In this document: positions 6,727 through 63,563 of the stretch, piece by piece
Position numbering within the stretch: the stretch's first letter is position 1
Layout of the letters: every line of letters starts with the position of its first letter
Source of the DNA: Planctomycetota bacterium
Lineage (GTDB): Bacteria; Planctomycetota; UBA8742; UBA2392
Direction of reading: 5' to 3'
Assembly: GCA_016722065.1 (NCBI GenBank)
Contig: JADKGX010000002.1
Location: 57,301 to 121,300, forward strand
DNA length: 64,000 nt
Position numbers and translations under genes: made by a program
Notes under the pieces: model-generated
What the model saw: the letters and a program-made list of their open reading frames with translations, nothing else
What the model was told of the DNA's origin: nothing
The model's database searches: none

Positions 6727-7224
6727 TCAGCCCACCGCGCTGGTTGCCATGGACATATCGGCACTGAACTGCAACGCAATCAGCACCACAAATACAGCCA
6801 CAATCACGGTGCTGATTACCGTTGCCATGCGCTTGCGCTTGCCGGAAGTGGTGGGCAGAAACACGCCGGCTGCCAGCAGCAGCACGCCCAGTGGCACCCA
6901 GGGGGCCGATGCCGAAAGCGAAACCACGCCCTGCAGCATTGAGTTCAAATGAAACACCAGTTGCTGGCCCAGCGGGGCGTCCAGGCCGGGGCCCTTCATC
7001 ACGGCCTCGGGCCCCCGGCGCATGAAACCCCAGACGCCCATCACCATGGTGGCCTCAACCAGAATGAACAGGTAATAGTAAAGGCCTTCGGGCAGGCGCG
7101 GCGAGGGCAGGTTGGGGTCGGGTTTGGCGCGTCCGGGGCGGTCCGCACGCAGCAGCGCCGCGATTTCGTCGTCGGTGGGCGATTTGGGTGCAGGGGTGGC
7201 TGCGGTTGGCGGGTCATCGGACAA
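6727..7224 (-). CDS. Hypothetical membrane protein (3 TM)
   Basis: Hydrophobic segments; 2-bp gap to the next gene. Confidence 0.7.
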   Translation of the reverse strand: MSDDPPTAATPAPKSPTDDEIAALLRADRPGRAKPDPNLPSPRLPEGLYYYLFILVEATMVMGVWGFMRRGPEAVMKGPGLDAPLGQQLVFHLNSMLQGVVSLSASAPWVPLGVLLLAAGVFLPTTSGKRKRMATVISTVIVAVFVVLIALQFSADMSMATSAVG

Positions 7225-7264
7225 GGCAAGTCACCTGCAAGTTGGGTATGCTTCAGGTTAGCCA

Positions 7265-10204
7265 ATGGCCGATGAAAACGCATCTGGTTCAAACCCGCCG
7301 GGGCACGAGTCCGCCAAACTCGCGCCCGAGGTCGCTTTGCCTGCGTCGCCCGCGCGCAGCGATACCAGCGCACGCCAGGACACACTGGTAGGCCAGCGGC
7401 TTGCCAGTTACGAGATTTTGTCGCGCGTGGCACGGGGCGGCATGGGCGTGGTGTACCGCGCGCGGCACGTGTACATCGACAAGATTGTGGCCGTCAAAGT
7501 GCTGGACCCCGCACTGGCGCAACGGCCCGATCTGATTGAGCGTTTTCGCACCGAGGCGCAGTCGCTGGCCCGTGTGGAACACGAAAACGTGGTCAAGGTA
7601 ATCGACATTCTGGAAGACAAGGGTGTCCACTTTATCGTGATGGATTTTGCTGAAGGCATCAACCTTCGCAACATGGTCAAAGAAACCGGGCCGCTGACAT
7701 CGGTTGAACTTCTCAGCGTCGCACGCCAGACCGCCGAGGCGCTTTACGCCGCGCACCGCGAGGGCATTCTGCACCGGGACATCAAGCCGGAAAACCTGAT
7801 CCGCAACGCGCGCGGGCGCTGCAAGCTGGCGGATTTCGGGCTGGCCGGCGACCTGCGCCTGATTGCCGAAGGCCACGAAGGCCCCCTGAACTTCGGCACA
7901 CCTGCCTACAGCGCACCCGAGGTCTTGCGCCGGCGCGTGCCGGACCGCCGCAGCGACATCTTCAGTTATGGCGCGACCATGTACCATCTGGCCACGGGCG
8001 AGCCGCCCTTTGGACACAGTGGGCTGCAGCAGATCATGCTGCGCCAGAAGCAGGGTGCCGAACTGCTGGATGGCCGGCGTGAGGACCTGCCCGTCAAGCT
8101 GTGCAAGCTGATCATGGATTGTCTGGCACTAGACCCAGCCCAGCGCCCAGACAGCTTCAGCGAAATCCTGGAACGCCTGCCCCGTCGTGCCCACACCCGC
8201 GTGGCCGGCGCCACGGCAACTGCCACCGAGCCTACGGACAACCTGGCCACGGCTTCAGCCCCGTTGCCGCCGGAGCCAGCACCAGCGCCCAATCGCGTTA
8301 TCGGCGTCGGTGTGCTTGTGCTGGCATTGGCGGCTGCTGCGCTGGTGGCATTTCTGGCCTGGCAGCAGTTTCGCAGCGGCCCTGCAGCGCCAAACCTGGC
8401 CAACGATTCCGCGCCGGGCAACGGTGATCCCCTGCCACCGCCGCCGACCAACGTGGCCAGCAACGGTCCGGCAGCCAATGGCCCAGGACCGACGTTTCTG
8501 CCGGAAGACGAAGCCTACGCCGCCGCAGAACTGGACAGCCGCACGGCGCTGTCACGCGCGGATTACGTTGCGGCTTATGCGGCCTTTGCGGCGTTTTTGG
8601 GCAAGTACCCGGCCTCGCGCTATGTCGAGCAAGCCCGCCAAGCACAGAAAGACGTTCAAAGCCGCGTGCAGCAACTGCGCCAGCAGGAAATGCGCAAGGC
8701 GCGCGATGCCAGCGACGAAGCCTTAAGGGAAAAGCGCACTGCCGATGCGCTGGCTGCATTGGCGCGGTTTCCTGCGGAGTTGCTCAAGCCATTGTTTGAG
8801 GGCGAGGAGATCGAATCCGCCCAGCTTCTGGAAACGCAGCGGCAGGTGGTGATTGCCGCCGAGGCCGGCGATCTGGCCCGGTTGTTTGAGCAGGCGGATT
8901 CCTGGCGCAAGACCTGGCGCGAGGACGCCGAGGGCGGCGAAGGCGTAAGTGAAACGCGCCGCCTCCGCGCAGCACCAATGTTGTTGAAGGAGCGCGACCT
9001 GCTGGAAGCCTTCTTGCCCGGCCGAACGCAGGACACGCAGGACAAAGTCAGCAAGCGGCTGGCGGGGCTGCGCAAGCAACTTGAAACCTCGCACCAAAAC
9101 GCGATGCTGGCGTTCAACAACTGGCGCCAGTTCGTGGGCGGCCTTCGCGCCGATTGGGCCCTGCAAGGCGTGCAACTGGCCGACACAGTGGCGCCGCTGC
9201 TGGCCAACAGGGATTTTGAAGCGGCACGCAAGCGGCTGGATGAACTGACCCAGAAGTGCACGCTGGCCCGACAAGCCCTGGCCGCAGCCGCCAAGGGCGA
9301 AGTCGGCGCGCGGGTAATCGAGCGCCGTGAAGTAGAAGACCTGCTTAAGCGTCTGCGCGACGACATCAGCCTTGCTGAAAAGTGCAACCTGGCCATGCAG
9401 GGTGCCCTGCGCCGCAACAAGTTGAGTGGCACGTCCACGGACTATCGCGTCCACGGCGGCTATGACGCCGACGGCAAGCGCAGCAGCAAGATCGACCGCT
9501 ACACGGGCCGCGTACTGGGCGTGACGCAGACGGACTTCGAACTTGAGACCGATGCCGGGCGCGTAACCCTGAAGCTGGATCTGCTGACGATCGACAGCGT
9601 GCGGGCGTTGCTCAAGGCCAGCCGGAACTTTGACGAACAACTCAGCCTGATTGCCTGGCTGGTGGCCCAGGGCAAGGGCGACCTGGCGGGCGTAGAGGAA
9701 GCCCGTATCGCAAGGCTTTCCGACGTGCCCAGTGACGTACTGGTGCGCATGCGCGAACTTGTGGCGGCAGGGCGGCTGGCACCCGCGGCCTTGCGCCGGC
9801 TGACGTACATGGCCGTGATTGAGGGCAAAATGCCCGCGCCCGCGGATGCAGCGTTGTGGCCGGAATCCAGCCTTGAGTCGCAGTTGGTGGCCGCCCAGGC
9901 CCGCGCGGCTGACGGAGCGGTGGATTCGGCCGGGGCCTATATCGCGCTGGTGCGTGACTTGGCAGACCCGGAACTGGTGCACCTGGAAACACTGTCGAGG
10001 GCGCTGGTCGTGGCGGATGCCCCGGTGAATGACCTGAAGCTGCGGCTGGCACTGGAACCCTGGGACGCCCGCGCGCACGCCCAGGTGGCGCGAGGGAACT
10101 TTCGTGCCGGTGCCGTTGACCAGGCCAAGCAGCAGTCCCAGCGCGCGCTGCTGATTGACCCAAGCTGCGAGGAAGCGTGGACGCTGCTCAAGGAGATTGG
10201 TTGA
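7265..10204 (+). CDS. Hanks-type Ser/Thr protein kinase, membrane-anchored, large helical C-terminal region
   Basis: GGMGVVY, VAVK, HRDIKPEN, DFG, GTPAYSAPE motifs; TM at about aa 345-365; TPR-like end. Confidence 0.95.
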   Translation: MADENASGSNPPGHESAKLAPEVALPASPARSDTSARQDTLVGQRLASYEILSRVARGGMGVVYRARHVYIDKIVAVKVLDPALAQRPDLIERFRTEAQSLARVEHENVVKVIDILEDKGVHFIVMDFAEGINLRNMVKETGPLTSVELLSVARQTAEALYAAHREGILHRDIKPENLIRNARGRCKLADFGLAGDLRLIAEGHEGPLNFGTPAYSAPEVLRRRVPDRRSDIFSYGATMYHLATGEPPFGHSGLQQIMLRQKQGAELLDGRREDLPVKLCKLIMDCLALDPAQRPDSFSEILERLPRRAHTRVAGATATATEPTDNLATASAPLPPEPAPAPNRVIGVGVLVLALAAAALVAFLAWQQFRSGPAAPNLANDSAPGNGDPLPPPPTNVASNGPAANGPGPTFLPEDEAYAAAELDSRTALSRADYVAAYAAFAAFLGKYPASRYVEQARQAQKDVQSRVQQLRQQEMRKARDASDEALREKRTADALAALARFPAELLKPLFEGEEIESAQLLETQRQVVIAAEAGDLARLFEQADSWRKTWREDAEGGEGVSETRRLRAAPMLLKERDLLEAFLPGRTQDTQDKVSKRLAGLRKQLETSHQNAMLAFNNWRQFVGGLRADWALQGVQLADTVAPLLANRDFEAARKRLDELTQKCTLARQALAAAAKGEVGARVIERREVEDLLKRLRDDISLAEKCNLAMQGALRRNKLSGTSTDYRVHGGYDADGKRSSKIDRYTGRVLGVTQTDFELETDAGRVTLKLDLLTIDSVRALLKASRNFDEQLSLIAWLVAQGKGDLAGVEEARIARLSDVPSDVLVRMRELVAAGRLAPAALRRLTYMAVIEGKMPAPADAALWPESSLESQLVAAQARAADGAVDSAGAYIALVRDLADPELVHLETLSRALVVADAPVNDLKLRLALEPWDARAHAQVARGNFRAGAVDQAKQQSQRALLIDPSCEEAWTLLKEIG

Positions 10205-37849: not shown

Positions 37850-39337
37850 TCACTTGGAGCCATCCTTGCGAAAATCGCGCCCATCGAACGAAAAGACCAC
37901 ATCTTTACCTTCTTCGCGGCTGGCAAGGTGCACCGGGCGGTTCCAGATACGGTGCAGGTTGGAAAGTGTCTCGCGTGTGTACTTGCCGTCCAGGTCAAAA
38001 CCTTCATGCCTGTGCACCAGCAGCAATTCGCCGCGGTTGTGGTAGTTGCCGTCGTGCACCTCAATGAAGGGCTCGCCCATGTTGGTCAACTGGGTCAGCA
38101 GCTTCTGCTTGATCTGGTCGAAGTCGCGGGCACTGATTTCGTATCGCCCGCTGGACTCATTGAAATCATAGGTAAACAGCTTGGCCCGCACGCAGAAGTC
38201 GGGCGTCAGAAACTCGTCGATGAAGGTCAGGTCATTGTAGATGCGTCGTACCTCAAAGATCTTGCGGCGGCCTTCACCGGGCGTGTGCTTATCCCAGTTG
38301 GCTTTTTCGGCCAGGTCGTCGCACTGGTCCCATTGCGGGCCGTGCATGCCGTGATCCCAGCGGTACTCAATGTCGCGCAGCATTTCCAGACCCAGCTTGT
38401 AGGGGTTGATCACCCCCGGCTGCATACCCATGGTCATGCTGTGATGATCTGCAAAATCCACGATCTCGGCGGCGGTGGCGGCTTTTTGGGTCATGATCGT
38501 GCTGTGCCAATAGCTGGCCCAGCCCTCGTTCATGATCTTGGTCTGGCGCTGGGGCGCAAAGTAATAGGCCTCGTCGCGCACAATCGCCAGCACGTCGCGC
38601 TGCCAGTTGCGCAACGGGGCATAGTTAATCAAGAACCAAAGCACGTCCTTGATGGGCTGCTCTGGGAACTTTGGCGGCTGCTGCTTCTTTTTCAGTAACT
38701 CCCCGCGCCGCTGTTCCAGAATCTCGGGCGGGTTGATGTAGCGGTCCATGTAATCCTTGGACTTCAGCTTGGTCACTTCCACGCGGGCGGTTTCGTCGTC
38801 CAGATCATTCTGCTCCCGGCGCACCGGCTGGCGGGTGAATGGAAGCATGGGGTCAATCAGGTTTTCCAGGCTCAGGCAGGCGTCGACGAAAGCCTCGACC
38901 TTTTCCTGGCCGTAATGGTCAATGTAGCGCCGCATGCGGGCGGCGTGGTTGGCCATCTGATCGACCATCTTGCGGTTGGTTTTGCTGAACCAGGCGTTGT
39001 TCTTGAAGAAGTCGGCATGGCCGTAAACGTGTGCCATGACAAGCTTCTGGGAGACAAAGTCGTTGCTGTCCATCAGGTAGGCAATCACCGGGTCGTTGTT
39101 GATCACCAGTTCATAGATCTTGCTGATGCCGTAGGTGTAGCCCTTGAGGAGTTCCTCAAACTGCATGCCAAAGCGCCAATGCGGATAGCGCGTGGGGAAG
39201 CCACCGTAGGCCGCAACTTCGTTCAGGCTTTCGGAATCCAGCAGCTCAAAGTGGACGTCGTAGAAGTCCAGCCCGTACTTCAGGGCGTGCTCGAGTATCT
39301 GCTGCTTGGTTGCCGCCAGTTCGCCGGTGAGGATCAC
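37850..39337 (-). CDS. spoVR: SpoVR family protein
   Basis: [47 protein letters not shown]; GTG start with GGAG RBS. Confidence 0.92.
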
Positions 39338-39649
39338 GCGTGTCTCCAGCCCCTGTACCCCAAAGTAACCCAGCGTGCCGCGCCCGTACAGGTGTGGAAG
39401 GTCGCAGCGAAGGCGGCGCCTGTTCGCCTCGACGTGCGTCGGGTTCATGGCAACCACGAAATGGGGTGGTGGGCTATCTGACGTGGGCGTTAAGTGTCAA
39501 CGGTCGCAGCCTTGGAAGCCATGCCGGCAGTAAGGCTTGCGCCAAGTAAGAATTTGCGGCAATTCTGATTCCCGTGTAATGCCTTGGCCTGCCAGGCGAC
39601 ATACTGGCAGCAGTTCATTGGCATATTCGGACAAGAAACGGAGGCACCA

Positions 39650-46147: not shown

Positions 46148-46864
46148 CTAGGTCCTTTTCTTTTTCGCGTCGATACGCGCCCTCATCGCCGCAGCGTGGG
46201 CGGGTGTAACGTACAAGTCCACAAACAACAACTCGACAACGTCGATCGTGTATTCGGCGTCTGCGGCGTCTACATCGATTATGGTTTCTGCTTGGTCGGT
46301 GCTTGGGTGCGCACTCCAGTTACCGATTTCGCGTACATGATGCAGGCTGTCCTGGGTCGGTTTCGTTAGCTCTGGTCGCTTGACGGCTTCCTCGATTTCT
46401 TGAAACAGATCCCGTTTCTTGATAGCCAACTTGATGCGAATCAAGTGCTGGATACAGCGGCGGGCAAGAACCGCTGCGGCCATCGGGGACGATGCCAGAA
46501 CGGCTCGCGCTTGGTCGTAAGCACTCTTGATTTCTGGTTCTACTTCTGGAGGAGCGGCATCTGGCCGAGTGCTTTGAGCGGGCCACAAGAACACGCCCAA
46601 GGGCAGATACGCAGAAAGAGCCAACATGCTAACGCCCACTACCGCGCCGCAACAACTCGCACACTCGGATAGGTGCAACTGTTCCGCAACCCCGTGCGAG
46701 TCTGGCTTCACATTGCGAAAGATCGACCTCTTGGAAGGGTAGCCGTATGTAGCTACCTGAGCGAAGGAACCGTAGGCTCCGCAATGTGGGCAGAGCGCGG
46801 CAGCCCCTGCAAACACGCCTGATTCTTCGAAAACTTGCCGAAGCGGCCTGTGCTTTTTGTTCAT
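46148..46864 (-). CDS. DUF4145 (HEPN-like) protein with N-terminal Zn finger
   Basis: CPHC...CASC; AAAVLARRCIQ...LFQEI...VREIGNWSAH signature. Confidence 0.82.
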   Translation of the reverse strand: MNKKHRPLRQVFEESGVFAGAAALCPHCGAYGSFAQVATYGYPSKRSIFRNVKPDSHGVAEQLHLSECASCCGAVVGVSMLALSAYLPLGVFLWPAQSTRPDAAPPEVEPEIKSAYDQARAVLASSPMAAAVLARRCIQHLIRIKLAIKKRDLFQEIEEAVKRPELTKPTQDSLHHVREIGNWSAHPSTDQAETIIDVDAADAEYTIDVVELLFVDLYVTPAHAAAMRARIDAKKKRT

Positions 46865-46927: not shown

Positions 46928-47374
46928 TCAAAACGGGATCTCGTCGCTGGTGGTGGCTGGCTCGAACCATGGCACCTGGGCGCCGTCGTCTGACCAGTCT
47001 GGCGCGGCTTCTTCCTGGGTCGGTTCTTCTTCCAGCCCTTTCGTGTTGTCGCGTGGCTGGTAGTGCTTGATCAAGTAGGCTTCGTGATCTAGCGGCTTGT
47101 CCGTTGCATACCACGCAATTTCTACGTCGTCGCGGTGGTAGGCTTCGCGGGGCTCGCCCCGGTCAATCCAATGGCCCATGTGGCGCTTGATCGTCTCGTA
47201 AAGGCGCCCTGTGTGGCTTTCGCCAACATAGAGCATGGCCTTGGTGCGGGCGTTTCGGATGCCGTACACCCCGTCAATCCAAGGCGCCATCTGCTTTGGG
47301 TAGCGCGTGCCTGGCGGGCCTGGGCGAAACCATTCGCCGGGCTTGAACGGGCGCGGGGTTTGAATCTTCTGCAT
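46928..47374 (-). CDS. GIY-YIG-like nuclease with acidic DEIPF tail
   Basis: GVYGIRN...LYVGES...IKRH...E...N pattern; ends TTSDEIPF. Confidence 0.72.
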   Translation of the reverse strand: MQKIQTPRPFKPGEWFRPGPPGTRYPKQMAPWIDGVYGIRNARTKAMLYVGESHTGRLYETIKRHMGHWIDRGEPREAYHRDDVEIAWYATDKPLDHEAYLIKHYQPRDNTKGLEEEPTQEEAAPDWSDDGAQVPWFEPATTSDEIPF

Positions 47375-47463
47375 GGGTTTCTCCGGTGCCTGATTTTTTG
47401 CTCTGCCTGTCGCGGGCCTGCGGTGTATCTTTGCACCTTCAAAGCACTGCCCTGGGGTTCCTT

Positions 47464-51323: not shown

Positions 51324-52205
51324 TTAGATGCCGTAGTAAGTTTTCAAGTCGTCAACCAACGTGGCATAGTTGGCATAGAGGCCATCGCTTAGGCTTCGCA
51401 GGCAATATCAAGATCGGCCTCGCCCAAGCCCAAGGCGCCCGCGTCGGGTGTCCAGTCGGCATTTTCTGCGACGGTCACAAAGGCGCCGCCGTCGATTGCG
51501 AGTTTCAATTTCTTCTCGCCTGCGGTGTTGTCAAAGCGCACATGCAGAACATGGGCGCCCACGTTGAACGCGGTATTTATCGCGGTCTGCGCGTAGCCTG
51601 TGAGGAAGCCGTAAGCGCGGGCGCCGGTGGTGTATTGGCGCACCACAAAGGGCCGGTTGGAGCCCAAGGCGCATATGCTCAAGTTGTCGTCGGCGGAAAC
51701 GCGGCGCACCACAATAAAGTAGTCGTAACTCTTGGCCGTGATCATGGCGGCGGCGGTGGTGTTCGTCGCCATCCCATGACTAAAGCCCTTTAATGGCTTC
51801 GATGTAGAGCGTGGGCTTGCCGTTAATTGCGTGGTCGCCGTCGCCCTTGCCGTGCTTGTAGTTGTTATTTCCGTTGCTCTGGTATGCCCACAATGCGCCC
51901 TCTGCGGGCGCGCGGCGTTTGATCACCTCGCCTTCGGTGCCTGCTGCGGGTGTGGTGCCCGCAACGTCGGTAAACAGTTTGGCCAAGTCCTCTTGGTAAA
52001 CCCAAGTAAGGCCGGTGCCTGCCAGCGGGTGCGACGGGCCAGCCGGGGGCGCGGGCGCGATGCTGGCGGCCACGCTGGCGGCCAAGCTGACGGCGCTGGC
52101 GACGGTGACGGAAAACAGCGCCGCGCCGCCCAATGCGCCGCCGCCCGCGTAGCCTATGGCGCGCGTGCGGGGCGGTTCGATCACGGGCAAGAACATCGCG
52201 GGCAT
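51324..52205 (-). CDS. Putative spike / receptor-binding protein (LamG-like beta-sandwich), split by two apparent frameshifts
   Basis: Three segments in different frames join into one protein ending ...LVDDLKTYYGI*; breaks at 51782-51784 and about 51395. Confidence 0.55.
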
Positions 52206-58297: not shown

Positions 58298-59202
58298 TCT
58301 GCGCCCTCCACGTCGGAAACTTCGGCGGTCGTGTCCACGGTTTTTACGCCGGTCATCTTCTCGCGGGCGTATTCAAAAATGGCCTGGATGTTTTCTTCGC
58401 TGGCGATGTTGTCCATGAAGCGCGCCAGCGCGCCGGGCTTGTCCTCGCGCACGTCCTCGGCGGCCTCGATCAACGGCGCGAGTTCGGCCTTCATGCGGGC
58501 GCCCAAGCTGGTCAACTTGCGCACCTCGCCAATTACCTTGCTGATTTGCTCCATGGGGTCTACGGGCTTGCGGGCGCGCTCGATCACGTCAAGCACAAGC
58601 TCGCGGCCTAGCATGTCCATGGGCGACGGCGCGGCCTGGCGCTGTTCCAGCCGTTCCAGCGCGCGGCGCATTTCCGCAAGCTCGGGGTTGGGCGCGGCGT
58701 GGTCGGGCGCGGCCTGGGCCTGGGCGGCGTCGGGCTCGATCATCAAAGCAAAGTGGGCCTCGTGCTTGCCGTCCTGGTCACTCCACGCCACGGTTCCTGC
58801 AACGTGGCCAGCGCCAGCGCGGCGCCGCATTGTTGCAATGGCATCGGGCGCCAGATGCGCCAGCGGGCACGCGATTTCCCGGCCTTGATCGGCGGTAAAC
58901 TTCACGGTGGCGGCGCGGTGGGGGACGGCCTGCAATTCGTCGGCGGTAAAGGCGCCGCCGTCAATCAAGCCCTGCAAGTAGCGCGGGATGGGCGCGGTTG
59001 AGCCGGTGCCGCGCCCGTTTTCCGCGTGGGCCTCTGCGCGCCGAACGGTGGGGCCGCGCGTGGGTGGCTCGGGGCGCGGTTCGGCGGGCATCGGCGGGAA
59101 GTCGTCGTCTAGCTCGTCGTCGGCGGGGTTGCCGCCCATGCGGTCGGAAAACAGCGCGGTGTTTGCCGTGTTGAGCGTGGGCTCTGTGCTGTCCGGTTGC
59201 AT
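58294..59202 (-). CDS. Hypothetical protein (acidic/Pro N-terminus, helical C-terminus); first gene of the putative late operon
   Basis: About 302-aa ORF coupled to the downstream gene. Confidence 0.65.
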   Translation of the reverse strand: MQPDSTEPTLNTANTALFSDRMGGNPADDELDDDFPPMPAEPRPEPPTRGPTVRRAEAHAENGRGTGSTAPIPRYLQGLIDGGAFTADELQAVPHRAATVKFTADQGREIACPLAHLAPDAIATMRRRAGAGHVAGTVAWSDQDGKHEAHFALMIEPDAAQAQAAPDHAAPNPELAEMRRALERLEQRQAAPSPMDMLGRELVLDVIERARKPVDPMEQISKVIGEVRKLTSLGARMKAELAPLIEAAEDVREDKPGALARFMDNIASEENIQAIFEYAREKMTGVKTVDTTAEVSDVEGAE

Positions 59203-60664
59203 GGGCGGCGCCTCGCGGGTTGTGGCTGCTGCCACAAGCTCAAGCCACCATCGTAAACGGTGCACCCACGCTGCTCGCGGCCGGGCAACAATCTTGGATC
59301 CAGGCGCGGGGCCTGATGGCCACGGTTTCCTAGCCGCGGGTCGTGGTACTTTCGGGCGATGGCCTCAAGCTGCGCCAGCGTGGCGCACGTTGGGGCCGGT
59401 GCGTAACTTTCGCGCCACGCCGGGCGGCCTGCTTTGAGCCAGTCTTGGGCGTCCATCTGCAAGCGCAAAGGCCAGCGCCCGCGCCGGGCCTCGTCAATCG
59501 CGGCATCCTGAAACGGCGCCAGCCGCGCGGCAAACGCGTCGGCCATCGCTTCACGGTCTGCGCGGGCCTGGTCTCGCGCGGAATCCTGCGCCTGATGCAA
59601 CTGCCTGCGGTTCGCAAGTGTTGACTCGTCAAGGGCGCGGCCTTGTGGCTGTTGGTCGTTGCCGTTGGCTGGTAGCTGCATGGCCTGGCGCAAGGCGGCG
59701 CGGCGCTGTTGGTCTTGGTGCCAGCGGTCTACCGTGATTGCGCCCTCGGGCAACGTGAGACGTTCGCCGCGTTGGAAACGGCGCACCATATCGCGCAAGA
59801 ATCCCCAACATTCGTTGGCCTGCTGTTGCGGTTTGCGAGTTTCTCCAGCGCCATCGTGAGCGCAGCGGGCGTGGCGCTGGCGCCGATCTGTGCAAAGTCG
59901 CGCATATCGGCGGGCGTTAGCAGGCAGACCACGCGGGCGAAAGCTGCAAGGGCGTCGGGGCTCCCTTCTGCTGCTGCTTTATCTTGCTTCTGCATATCTG
60001 CTTTTAGGCGGTCGTCGGATGGGCTTGCTGGTGCGGTTCCTGGGCGTTGGTTGGTGGTGTATACCACCTGGTTTGGTGGTATATGCGCGGGTGGGGTGGT
60101 GGTGTGCACCACCAACTCTGGTGGTGTAGACCACCTATCTTGGTGGTGTATACCACCAACTTTGGCGTCGGTTTCTGCGTCGGTTTCTGCCTGGATTTCG
60201 TCGCCCTGGTCGGCCTGGGTTTCGGTGTTATCCACACTCTTGATGGGCGCGTTTCCGGTGTTCGTTTCTCGCCAGTATGGCCGGGCATCGCATAGCGATT
60301 TGAGATTGCTGACGGCCTGGGCGCCGTCGTGAAACACAAGCGCGCCGGTGCGGTCTTTCCATGCGCCATAGTCTGTGTTGAGGATGTAGCGGGCTTTGCT
60401 GGTCTCGATCAAGATGCCACGCCAGACCAGCCGCTTAAGTGCGCGGTAGCAGTCGCCACGGGCGCTGCGTTGGCTGTTGAGCCACGGGCCGGTGGCCACG
60501 TTGATCAGCGCAGATTTCTGCCATTGCTGCGGCGTGCCGTACATGTAAGCGATTGCCGACAACATCAAGCCGGATTCGGCCTGGCTCAAGTCCATTTGCG
60601 CCAGCGCAAAAAGCAAGTCGTGGCATGGCGTGGCGAAGGGCTTGGCGCGTAGTTTGTAGCTCAC
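59109..60664 (-). CDS. Lambda-O-like replication initiator; apparent -1 frameshift at 59803-59806; C-terminal end uncertain
   Basis: N-terminus LLFALAQMDLSQAE...AYMYG...ALKRLVWRGIL...LNTDYGAW resembles the Phage_rep_O winged helix; one more G gives NVGGFLRDMVRRF and joins ORF 59109-59798. Confidence 0.72.
60053..60157. repeat. Iteron array (putative origin) inside the rep gene
   Basis: GGTGG-N6-CCACC at 60053, 60098, 60120 and 60142, plus a half-site at 60075; spacing 22/23/22/22 bp. Confidence 0.85.
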
Positions 60665-62165: not shown

Positions 62166-62330
62166 TGAGGTCAGGCGGGGCGGTTTGGCTGCGGTTGGCT
62201 GTGCCAAGGGCTTTTACGGCCAAATGCCTGCTGGTTCTACTCGGCACATGGCCATTTCGGCCCGGCGTTTCTGGCCATGCCGCGTTATCATCCTGACGCC
62301 CTGATTTGACCCCGTGGAGTGCCTGCGCTG

Positions 62331-63563
62331 ATGACACTGCGTCCTGTTCTGCTGGCGATTTTACTTGCCGCCAGTGCCTTGCCTGCTGCCAATGTTGCCG
62401 TCAACCTTTCCGGCACGACGAATCAGCCCTTTGCCAACAAGCTCGTCGATACCGACGTGCAGGTTGCCCGCTTTGTTCTGCAGGCCAGTGGCGGCGATGT
62501 AACCATCGATGGCATCACGATTGACTTTTCCAATCCCACCAATGCGGCCTTGGCTTTCTCCGGTGTGCGGCTGTTTTACGACGCCAACGGCAACGGCACA
62601 TTTGAAGACCCGGCGGAAGAACTTGGCAGCGTCCAGGCCGTTGGCACCGGCGCCGTTACGTTCACGGAGACTTTCACGGCCCTCAATGGCCTGATTCGCG
62701 AGCTTCAGGTTCGCGTACACATTGGCAATAACGTGGCTGTGTATGGCGAGGCCTTCCAGGCCCGGATTGACGCCGCAGGCAGCATTGTTCTGCCTGGCGC
62801 CAGCAGCGATACGGTCAGCGGAACGTTTCCAGCCACCGGCAACGCGATCACGATTCGCAACAGCGTCAACCAGCTTGTGCAAGGCACTGGCAACCCGGCC
62901 ACGCCGCGCACAGTGGCCAAAGGCAGCCAGAGTGTTTCCGGGGTTCACTTCATCGTTGATTGCCAGGTGGCAACCAACCCCGGAGAACTTGTGGGCATAG
63001 ATCTGCAAAGCCTTGCGATCAGCGTGACGACCCAGACAGCCGGGCAAACGGCGGCGGTTTCTGGTGTCAGCCTGTGGCAAGACGACGGCGATGGGCTGTT
63101 TGAGCCCGGCGCCGGCGAGATTCAAATTCTTGGGCGCACCCCGGCCGACGTAGGCAAATGGATTGCTGCCGGCAACGTGATTACCGTGACCTTTGACGGA
63201 ACATCGATCGCCGTGCTGCCGCAGATCAACACTGGGCAGGCGCGGGCGTTCTGGGCCAGCATTAGTTTTGTTGGTGGCATGGAATGTGTGTGCCAGGTTT
63301 CGATCAATCGCACGGGCATTCAGGGCTCGCTGGGCAACCTTGCGGACTTCTTCGTAACAAGCCCGGCATCGATTCAAGGCGAGGTAATCACCGTGGCCGA
63401 TGTGCCAAAGGGTGACAAGGCCCCCGAAGCCTCCGGGGAGGGCGGCTGCAGTACGGCCGGACAGCCATTTTCGGGTCTTAGTCTGGCCTGGTTGCTGGCA
63501 GGAATTGCTTCGGGTTTGTGCTTGCGTAATCGTAGAGTAAAGCAAGCAAAATTACCCAACTAA
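62331..63563 (+). CDS. Exported beta-rich surface protein with GGCS-type C-terminal sorting tail
   Basis: Signal peptide; repeated LFYDANGNG / LWQDDGDG motifs; ends GGCST-spacer-TM-RNRR. Confidence 0.8.
   Translation: MTLRPVLLAILLAASALPAANVAVNLSGTTNQPFANKLVDTDVQVARFVLQASGGDVTIDGITIDFSNPTNAALAFSGVRLFYDANGNGTFEDPAEELGSVQAVGTGAVTFTETFTALNGLIRELQVRVHIGNNVAVYGEAFQARIDAAGSIVLPGASSDTVSGTFPATGNAITIRNSVNQLVQGTGNPATPRTVAKGSQSVSGVHFIVDCQVATNPGELVGIDLQSLAISVTTQTAGQTAAVSGVSLWQDDGDGLFEPGAGEIQILGRTPADVGKWIAAGNVITVTFDGTSIAVLPQINTGQARAFWASISFVGGMECVCQVSINRTGIQGSLGNLADFFVTSPASIQGEVITVADVPKGDKAPEASGEGGCSTAGQPFSGLSLAWLLAGIASGLCLRNRRVKQAKLPN

Follow-up and report, generated by a model that had tools for sequence, protein, structure and literature searches.

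A probable lambda-type replication origin inside the O-like initiator gene of a tailless Planctomycetota provirus

The initiator gene and its surroundings

The stretch of DNA analysed here (the window, 64 kb in full length) contains a 17-kb provirus of a tailless, double-jelly-roll virus. The replication initiator gene (rep) of this provirus lies on the minus strand between a small regulator-like gene and a gene for a 298-aa protein, and it carries within its own coding sequence an array of short palindromic repeats followed by an AT-rich tract (Table 1). The start codon of rep is GTG at 60664. The stop codon of the regulator-like gene overlaps this start, which points to translational coupling within the early operon. 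Two close copies of the locus were available for comparison, L001 (a Logan contig) and L002 (GCA_964267785.1).

Table 1. Features of the initiator locus, in window coordinates; the iterons are numbered in gene order.
Feature	Position	Strand	Description
XRE/HTH_31-like (weak) gene, 104 aa	60661-60975	-	Upstream of rep, early operon
Initiator (rep) gene	59307-60664	-	Full-length homology to the intact 445-aa P0004
N-terminal winged-helix domain coding region (~aa 1-130)	60275-60664	-	Distant homologue, by profile comparison, of the lambda O origin-binding domain (PF04492)
Iteron 1	60142-60157		GGTGGTGTATACCACC = GGTGGT-GTAT-ACCACC; translated GGIHH
Iteron 2	60120-60135		GGTGGTGTAGACCACC = GGTGGT-GTAG-ACCACC; translated RWSTPP, in a different frame from iteron 1
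Iteron 3	60098-60113		GGTGGTGTGCACCACC = GGTGGT-GTGC-ACCACC; translated LVVHTT, in the third frame
Iteron 4	60075-60083		Half-site GGTGGTATA; L001 has the fuller dyad GGTGGGATACACCACC at the same position
Iteron 5	60053-60068		GGTGGTGTATACCACC = GGTGGT-GTAT-ACCACC; closest iteron to the AT-rich tract
Candidate DNA-unwinding element	59967-60006		60% AT, purine/pyrimidine-skewed; 47 bp past the last iteron in gene orientation
First frame break	59801-59804	-	TGGGG versus GGGCGG (L002) and GGGGGG (L001); one base short
Second frame break	59329-59331	-	One extra G: CTAGGAAAC versus CTAGAAAC (L002) and TTGAAAC (L001)
298-aa gene	58306-59202	-	Just downstream of rep, position of lambda P

As assembled, the rep open reading frame encodes a protein of 311 aa (P0001) and ends at a stop at 59729; the only close relatives of P0001 are 369 and 445 aa long. 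Alignments of both DNA and protein revealed that the gene is read in frame A from 60664 to 59804, in another frame from 59804 to 59331, and then in frame A again. The out-of-frame segment between the two breaks still encodes the ancestral protein without stops. L001 has one intact rep open reading frame of 445 aa, and in L002 rep is broken too, at another place. Programmed frameshifting at the breaks was rejected, since the L001 reading frame is uninterrupted and the L002 break lies elsewhere. A second provirus gene (51327-52205, minus strand), which is the orthologue of a 293-aa L001 protein beside the small jelly-roll gene, is read in frames -3, -1, and -3, another pair of opposite single-base shifts relative to L001. 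In L002, a G run in a 413-aa host gene beside the provirus (7178-8325, corresponding to 62319-63563 of the window) is one base short, which splits the gene into parts of 162 and 222 aa and suggests indel errors in the GCA_964267785.1 assembly. The genome from which the window derives (G000) is 88% 'complete' in only six contigs, and together these observations fit the pattern typical of long-read consensus errors. If the frame breaks are real, the window copy keeps an intact origin and cannot make the full-length initiator.

Real breaks would agree with a provirus that has been domesticated and is decaying, in which the initiator is a pseudogene, the array is the relic of a formerly functional origin, and nothing fires in this genome. 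The two breaks in rep and the two in 51327-52205 relative to L001, the separate break in L002 rep, and the presence of three close copies at the same chromosomal site all speak for such a relic. We nevertheless consider it unlikely. The iterons are kept without a single change between the window and L002, the shifted segment remains a stop-free copy of the ancestral protein, the indels in the L002 host gene and the 88% figure for G000 in six contigs are typical of long-read consensus errors, and L001 retains the intact 445-aa gene. The family is also absent from two genomes of the same genus, so that the element appears to be mobile and not fixed.

Other replication functions were sought among 19 provirus open reading frames and their intact orthologues, and no helicase, loader, primase, polymerase, or rolling-circle nuclease was matched in Pfam or PHROG. 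Among the 19 provirus frames there was likewise no match to HUH or Rep_trans initiators, the sole Rep_trans line being noise (P0008, E 0.094), and no Walker-A motif was detected in any frame of the provirus. The 298-aa gene is conserved in all three lineages of the family described below, at 24-53% identity, and had no match in Pfam, NCBIfam, PHROGs, or PDB sequences. By its position, which matches that of lambda P, its product is a candidate non-homologous helicase loader or scaffold protein. To our knowledge lambda P itself has no Walker A, and a non-homologous loader is therefore possible despite the Walker-A-free provirus. The original prediction noted no P/DnaC-like loader and presumed that the host loader is used; the absence of a loader agrees with the searches, all of them negative (Pfam, PHROG, Walker A). 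In the host genome DnaB was found at 305 bits and DciA at a borderline 22.5 bits against a cut-off of 24, and the search of that genome yielded no clear DnaC.

At the low-GC left end of the element, two minus-strand genes (46148-46864 and 46931-47377) encode a DUF4145 protein (E 4.5e-15) and a small protein that is GIY-YIG-like by eye. These are probably cargo or a defence module and not core virus genes.

The initiator protein and its family

The AF2 model of the intact protein has a folded winged helix at residues 15-127 and an all-helical C-terminal region at residues 217-430 (pLDDT ~90); the secondary structure of the N-domain is H-H-H-E-E. Direct hmmscan of the three close copies returned PF04492 as the best and only consistent Pfam match. 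The scores, 13.7-18.8 bits (E 0.0023-0.2), are below the gathering cut-off of 28.7, and the alignment spans profile positions 14-95 of 95. This profile was matched by six of the ten family members. The family profile in turn detected P0012, a true PF04492 protein (79.5 bits), at E 1.9e-4 in a search of 1.84 billion proteins. When eight family N-domains were aligned by hhalign, the result was 95.7% against P0012 and, for an alignment of 20 PF04492 proteins with lambda O among them, 96.6% (E 6.8e-10); against lambda O alone it was insignificant (E 0.14). P0007, another member of the family, matches phrog_678, annotated as 'replication initiation O-like'.

Structural comparisons were made with models of moderate quality (pLDDT 69 and 63, from alignments of only 10 and 4 sequences). 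In three Foldseek searches (full-length model against BFVD and PDB, N-domain model against BFVD) no match reached E <= 0.001; with these moderate models the best relevant one, at E 0.41, was to a protein annotated as 'lambda replication protein O N-terminal domain'. Sequence and profile searches of PDB with the N-domain, with the family as a whole, and with the 298-aa protein produced chance matches only. Judged by the profile alignments, the N-domain and the lambda O origin-binding domain are distantly homologous, and the former is a member at the level of the superfamily and not at the Pfam threshold. The O-like domain of the original prediction, for which comparison with PF04492 had been proposed as a check, thus holds at the profile-profile level, with the direct Pfam match remaining sub-threshold. 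For the C-terminal region no relative was found in Pfam, NCBIfam, PHROGs, PDB sequences, or PDB folds.

The family is small. A search of 1.84 billion representative proteins with the N-domain profile recovered only nine clusters at 50% identity, and in a sample of 401 Planctomycetota genomes the family was present in two. Two same-genus genomes are without it, and we conclude from this distribution that the element is mobile and rare. No match to the initiator protein was obtained by tblastn against 50,697 phage records, and P0005 had no related locus in IMG/VR. One further locus, L004, which was found with P0010, proved to be a false positive: it encodes a terminase sharing the word 'MDSCRYAMS' and has no repeats.

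The repeat array and the AT-rich tract

The array (60053-60157, read on the plus strand) consists of four perfect 16-bp GGTGGT-N4-ACCACC palindromes and one half-site, and the start-to-start distances of the five sites are 22, 23, 22, and 22 bp. Five sites of these sequences, at a period of two helical turns and just downstream of the winged-helix coding region, had been predicted, and they are present as described. Within the minus-strand initiator gene the array occupies nt 508-612 (codons ~169-204), directly after the part coding for the winged helix (~codons 1-130). With at most one mismatch allowed, GGTGGT-N4-ACCACC occurred four times in the 64-kb window, each time in the array, where 0.18 occurrences were expected window-wide, and none of 100 shuffles reached four dyad matches. 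The half-site TACACCACCA, again with at most one mismatch, had 11 matches in the window (2.2 expected), seven of which fall within the ~107-bp array. Scans with the pattern and with the half-site revealed no further iteron copies, as possible operators, elsewhere in the provirus.

Across the repeats, one DNA word is read in all three frames, giving the peptides GGIHH, RWSTPP, and LVVHTT/QVVYTT. Since a period of 22-23 bp is not divisible by 3 and all three reading frames are used, the repeat is one of DNA and not of peptide. Just upstream of the array in gene order lies a 12-bp tandem duplication, GCGTCGGTTTCT x2 at 60162-60191 (peptide AETDAETDA). It is missing from L002 and therefore represents variation in linker length, outside the iteron set.

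The proteins encoded by the window and by L001 are 61% identical. At the DNA level the iteron cores were identical at 66 of 76 positions (87%) in this comparison and the remaining linker at 65 of 144 (~45%), a highly significant difference (Fisher p 6e-10). The remaining linker comprised the inter-iteron spacers (13/29 identical), 70 columns upstream (27/70), and 45 columns downstream (25/45). Between the window and L002, the cores were identical at 76/76 positions and the rest of the linker at 99/144. Conservation of the cores far above that of the remaining linker demonstrates selection on the DNA and not on the peptide, and AF2 pLDDT is ~30 for the array-encoded stretch, residues 131-216 of the intact protein. 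The three reading frames, the palindromy, the conservation of the cores, and the low-pLDDT linker establish that the repeats are DNA sites. The linker protein tolerates whatever these sites dictate.

In a gene of ~63% GC, the candidate DNA-unwinding element is the most AT-rich 40-mer, and within the 17-kb provirus it is joint second in AT content, tied with four others at 60% AT. Its conservation against L001 (34/45, 76%) is above that of the DNA on either side. In all five genes examined (the window and four relatives) the most AT-rich 40-mer follows the last iteron on its 3' side at a distance of ~40-70 nt, and in lambda O it is likewise on the 3' side, immediately after the last iteron. For three independent lineages, the chance of finding this 40-mer no more than 100 nt past the array is ~5e-4. 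By composition and position, the AT-rich tract that flanks the iterons on their 3' side is the third anatomical part of a lambda-type origin.

Arrays were compared at the DNA level in L001, L002, and two distant family members, L003 and L007/L008. L003 (29% identity) has seven or eight GACACC(C) sites in the same linker at 22-23 bp spacing, several of which form GGTGTC-N4-GACACC dyads, and these are followed by an AT-rich stretch (75% AT). L007/L008 (~25% identity; another genus of the same planctomycete family) have five GTCCGA-CCCA-TCGGAC dyads at distances of 33, 33, 33, and 21 bp, and in L007 the most AT-rich 40-mer of the gene follows the array. Both L003 and L007 are syntenic with the window provirus: the genes after rep are homologous to its 298-aa, 163-aa, 511-aa, and 111-aa genes and its 367-aa capsid gene. 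A layout that persists across three lineages, with site sequences that vary along with the protein, is the pattern expected of an initiator and its cognate origin. The 18-kb L003 contig also encodes a tyrosine integrase (PF00589) at 1713-2780, at the end of the element. The window element has no integrase, and this virus lineage therefore includes two integration strategies. The linkers of P0005, P0006, P0007, and P0010 contain peptide repeats of ~7-8 aa (e.g. CSTTPEKVL twice in P0006), which suggest the same kind of array.

DNA sites of this form might alternatively serve as operators of a transcription regulator, either the upstream XRE-like protein or the initiator itself as autorepressor or roadblock, and not as an origin. 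Dyad-symmetric sites of 16 bp are indeed typical of operators, and an HTH_31-like gene lies immediately upstream. We regard this explanation as very unlikely. The sites occupy the middle of a gene instead of a promoter, no promoter-like site is found near the array, and neither the region around the early operon start nor the remainder of the provirus contains further copies. Operators would also leave aside the linked, conserved AT-rich tract, the same gene position in three lineages, the co-variation of the N-domain with the sites, and an arrangement that is the lambda layout. A peptide repeat or slippage-prone low-complexity linker without DNA function would suit a linker that is disordered, fast-evolving, and acidic/Pro/Thr-rich, next to a 12-bp duplication that is plain length variation absent in L002, but it can be practically dismissed, as the repeats are translated in three different frames, palindromy is meaningless for a peptide, and the cores are much more conserved than the spacers and flanks.

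Comparison with known origins and a proposed mechanism

In phage lambda, O is located at 38686-39585 and the iterons at 39034-39118, spaced 20, 24, and 23 bp, with the AT-rich tract directly after them (PMC7466680); the parallel originally drawn, that the ori iterons of lambda also lie inside O, is thus accurate. The locus described here resembles lambda O/ori-lambda in its N-terminal winged-helix origin-binding domain, which by profile belongs to the same superfamily, and in having four to six dyad-symmetric iterons, 20-24 bp apart, in the linker-coding part in the middle of the initiator gene, with an AT-rich tract 3' of them (PMC7466680). It differs from lambda in several respects. The N-domain is below the Pfam cut-off, the protein has 445 instead of 299 aa, and its helical C-terminal region is unrelated to that of lambda O and unannotated. 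No recognised P-type loader gene is found downstream as a partner to which the C-domain could bind. The AT-rich tract starts ~47 bp after the array, whereas in lambda it abuts the iterons, and in place of a tailed phage the carrier is a tailless double-jelly-roll provirus of 17 kb from Planctomycetota.

Lambda, P22, and SPP1 are classic examples of phages whose initiator gene contains the origin. In SPP1 gene 38/oriL and in lactococcal phage rep, the repeats of the origin are part of the coding sequence of the protein that binds them, and this protein has its DNA-binding domain at the N-terminus and a recruitment domain at the C-terminus; phages of this type encode their own loader and/or helicase. 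The initiator gene described here is like those of the Gram-positive phage replisome organisers in containing the origin repeats. The corresponding profiles PF09681 (Phage_rep_org_N) and PF07261 (DnaD-like) gave no match at E up to 1, and a Foldseek match to a DnaD N-domain was not significant (E 8.5). In iteron plasmids (Rep_3/RepA, pi, TrfA) a winged-helix initiator acts on phased repeats beside an AT-rich element and uses the host helicase without a plasmid loader. The iterons of these plasmids are direct repeats and lie outside rep, in contrast to the dyads inside the gene in this provirus, and PF01051 (Rep_3) was not matched by any of the 10 family members at E up to 1.

Among tailless phages, the PM2-like Vinavirales have winged-HTH (DnaD-like) initiators, and their replication modules are often exchanged (PMC9502842). 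The provirus shares with them a tailless double-jelly-roll virus type and a winged-helix initiator in place of a rolling-circle nuclease or protein-primed polymerase (PMC9502842). It differs from them in that the initiator is O-like and not DnaD-like and in having no packaging ATPase. In the available part of PMC9502842 we found no description of an in-gene iteron origin for Vinavirales initiators. Unlike PM2, FLiP, and inoviruses, the provirus has no HUH or Rep_trans rolling-circle initiator. The arrangement as such is already known; here the N-domain is very divergent, the C-domain is unannotated, and both the virus lineage and the host phylum are new.

We propose that the array and the AT-rich tract are probably the vegetative origin of the 17-kb tailless provirus, situated inside its own lambda-O-like initiator gene. 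The sequences support the presence of the three anatomical parts of a lambda-type origin, conserved in the relatives: an O-like N-domain, in-gene dyads, and a 3' AT-rich tract. The lambda-style origin of the original prediction is accordingly upheld by an N-domain homologous by profile, by in-gene dyads under selection at the DNA level, and by the position of the AT-rich tract 3' of them.

By analogy with lambda, dimers of the N-terminal winged helix would occupy the five 16-bp dyads, which follow each other at intervals of about two helical turns, and would wrap them into an O-some-like complex. This complex would strain the supercoiled circle and melt the AT-rich tract next to it. Host DnaB might then be brought in by the all-helical C-terminal domain (aa ~217-430 of the intact orthologue), either directly or via a DciA-type helper; host DnaB is proposed because the element encodes no helicase or loader. 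Bidirectional theta replication of the double-stranded circle would follow. We infer binding, unwinding, helicase recruitment, and replication mode from the known systems, and recruitment of the helicase is a step that we purely infer; both the C-domain and the 298-aa gene are without detectable relatives.

The original prediction further argued for dsDNA theta replication and against an ssDNA/rolling-circle inovirus. The lack of a HUH or Rep_trans initiator fits this, and we favour double-stranded theta replication over single-stranded rolling-circle replication. The argument is indirect, as it concerns the replication genes and not the packaged nucleic acid.

If the proposed origin is correct, the replication module of this tailless Planctomycetota provirus lineage consists of an O-like initiator with an in-gene origin, and includes no rolling-circle nuclease or polymerase. 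This bears on how an ATPase-less double-jelly-roll virus is to be classified relative to the ssDNA FLiP-like and the rolling-circle PM2-like viruses. The three different dyads in three lineages provide a natural specificity series for site reading by winged-helix initiators, and, in a phylum for which genetic tools are scarce, an intact rep that contains its own origin is a candidate for a compact replicon. It is conceivable, though we rather doubt it, that the family represents a self-contained 1.4-kb replicon whose helical C-domain loads host DnaB directly in a DciA-type bacterium, without a phage loader. If true, Planctomycetota vectors would gain their first minimal theta replicon, and a double-jelly-roll lineage without a packaging ATPase would be shown to replicate as a double-stranded theta circle.
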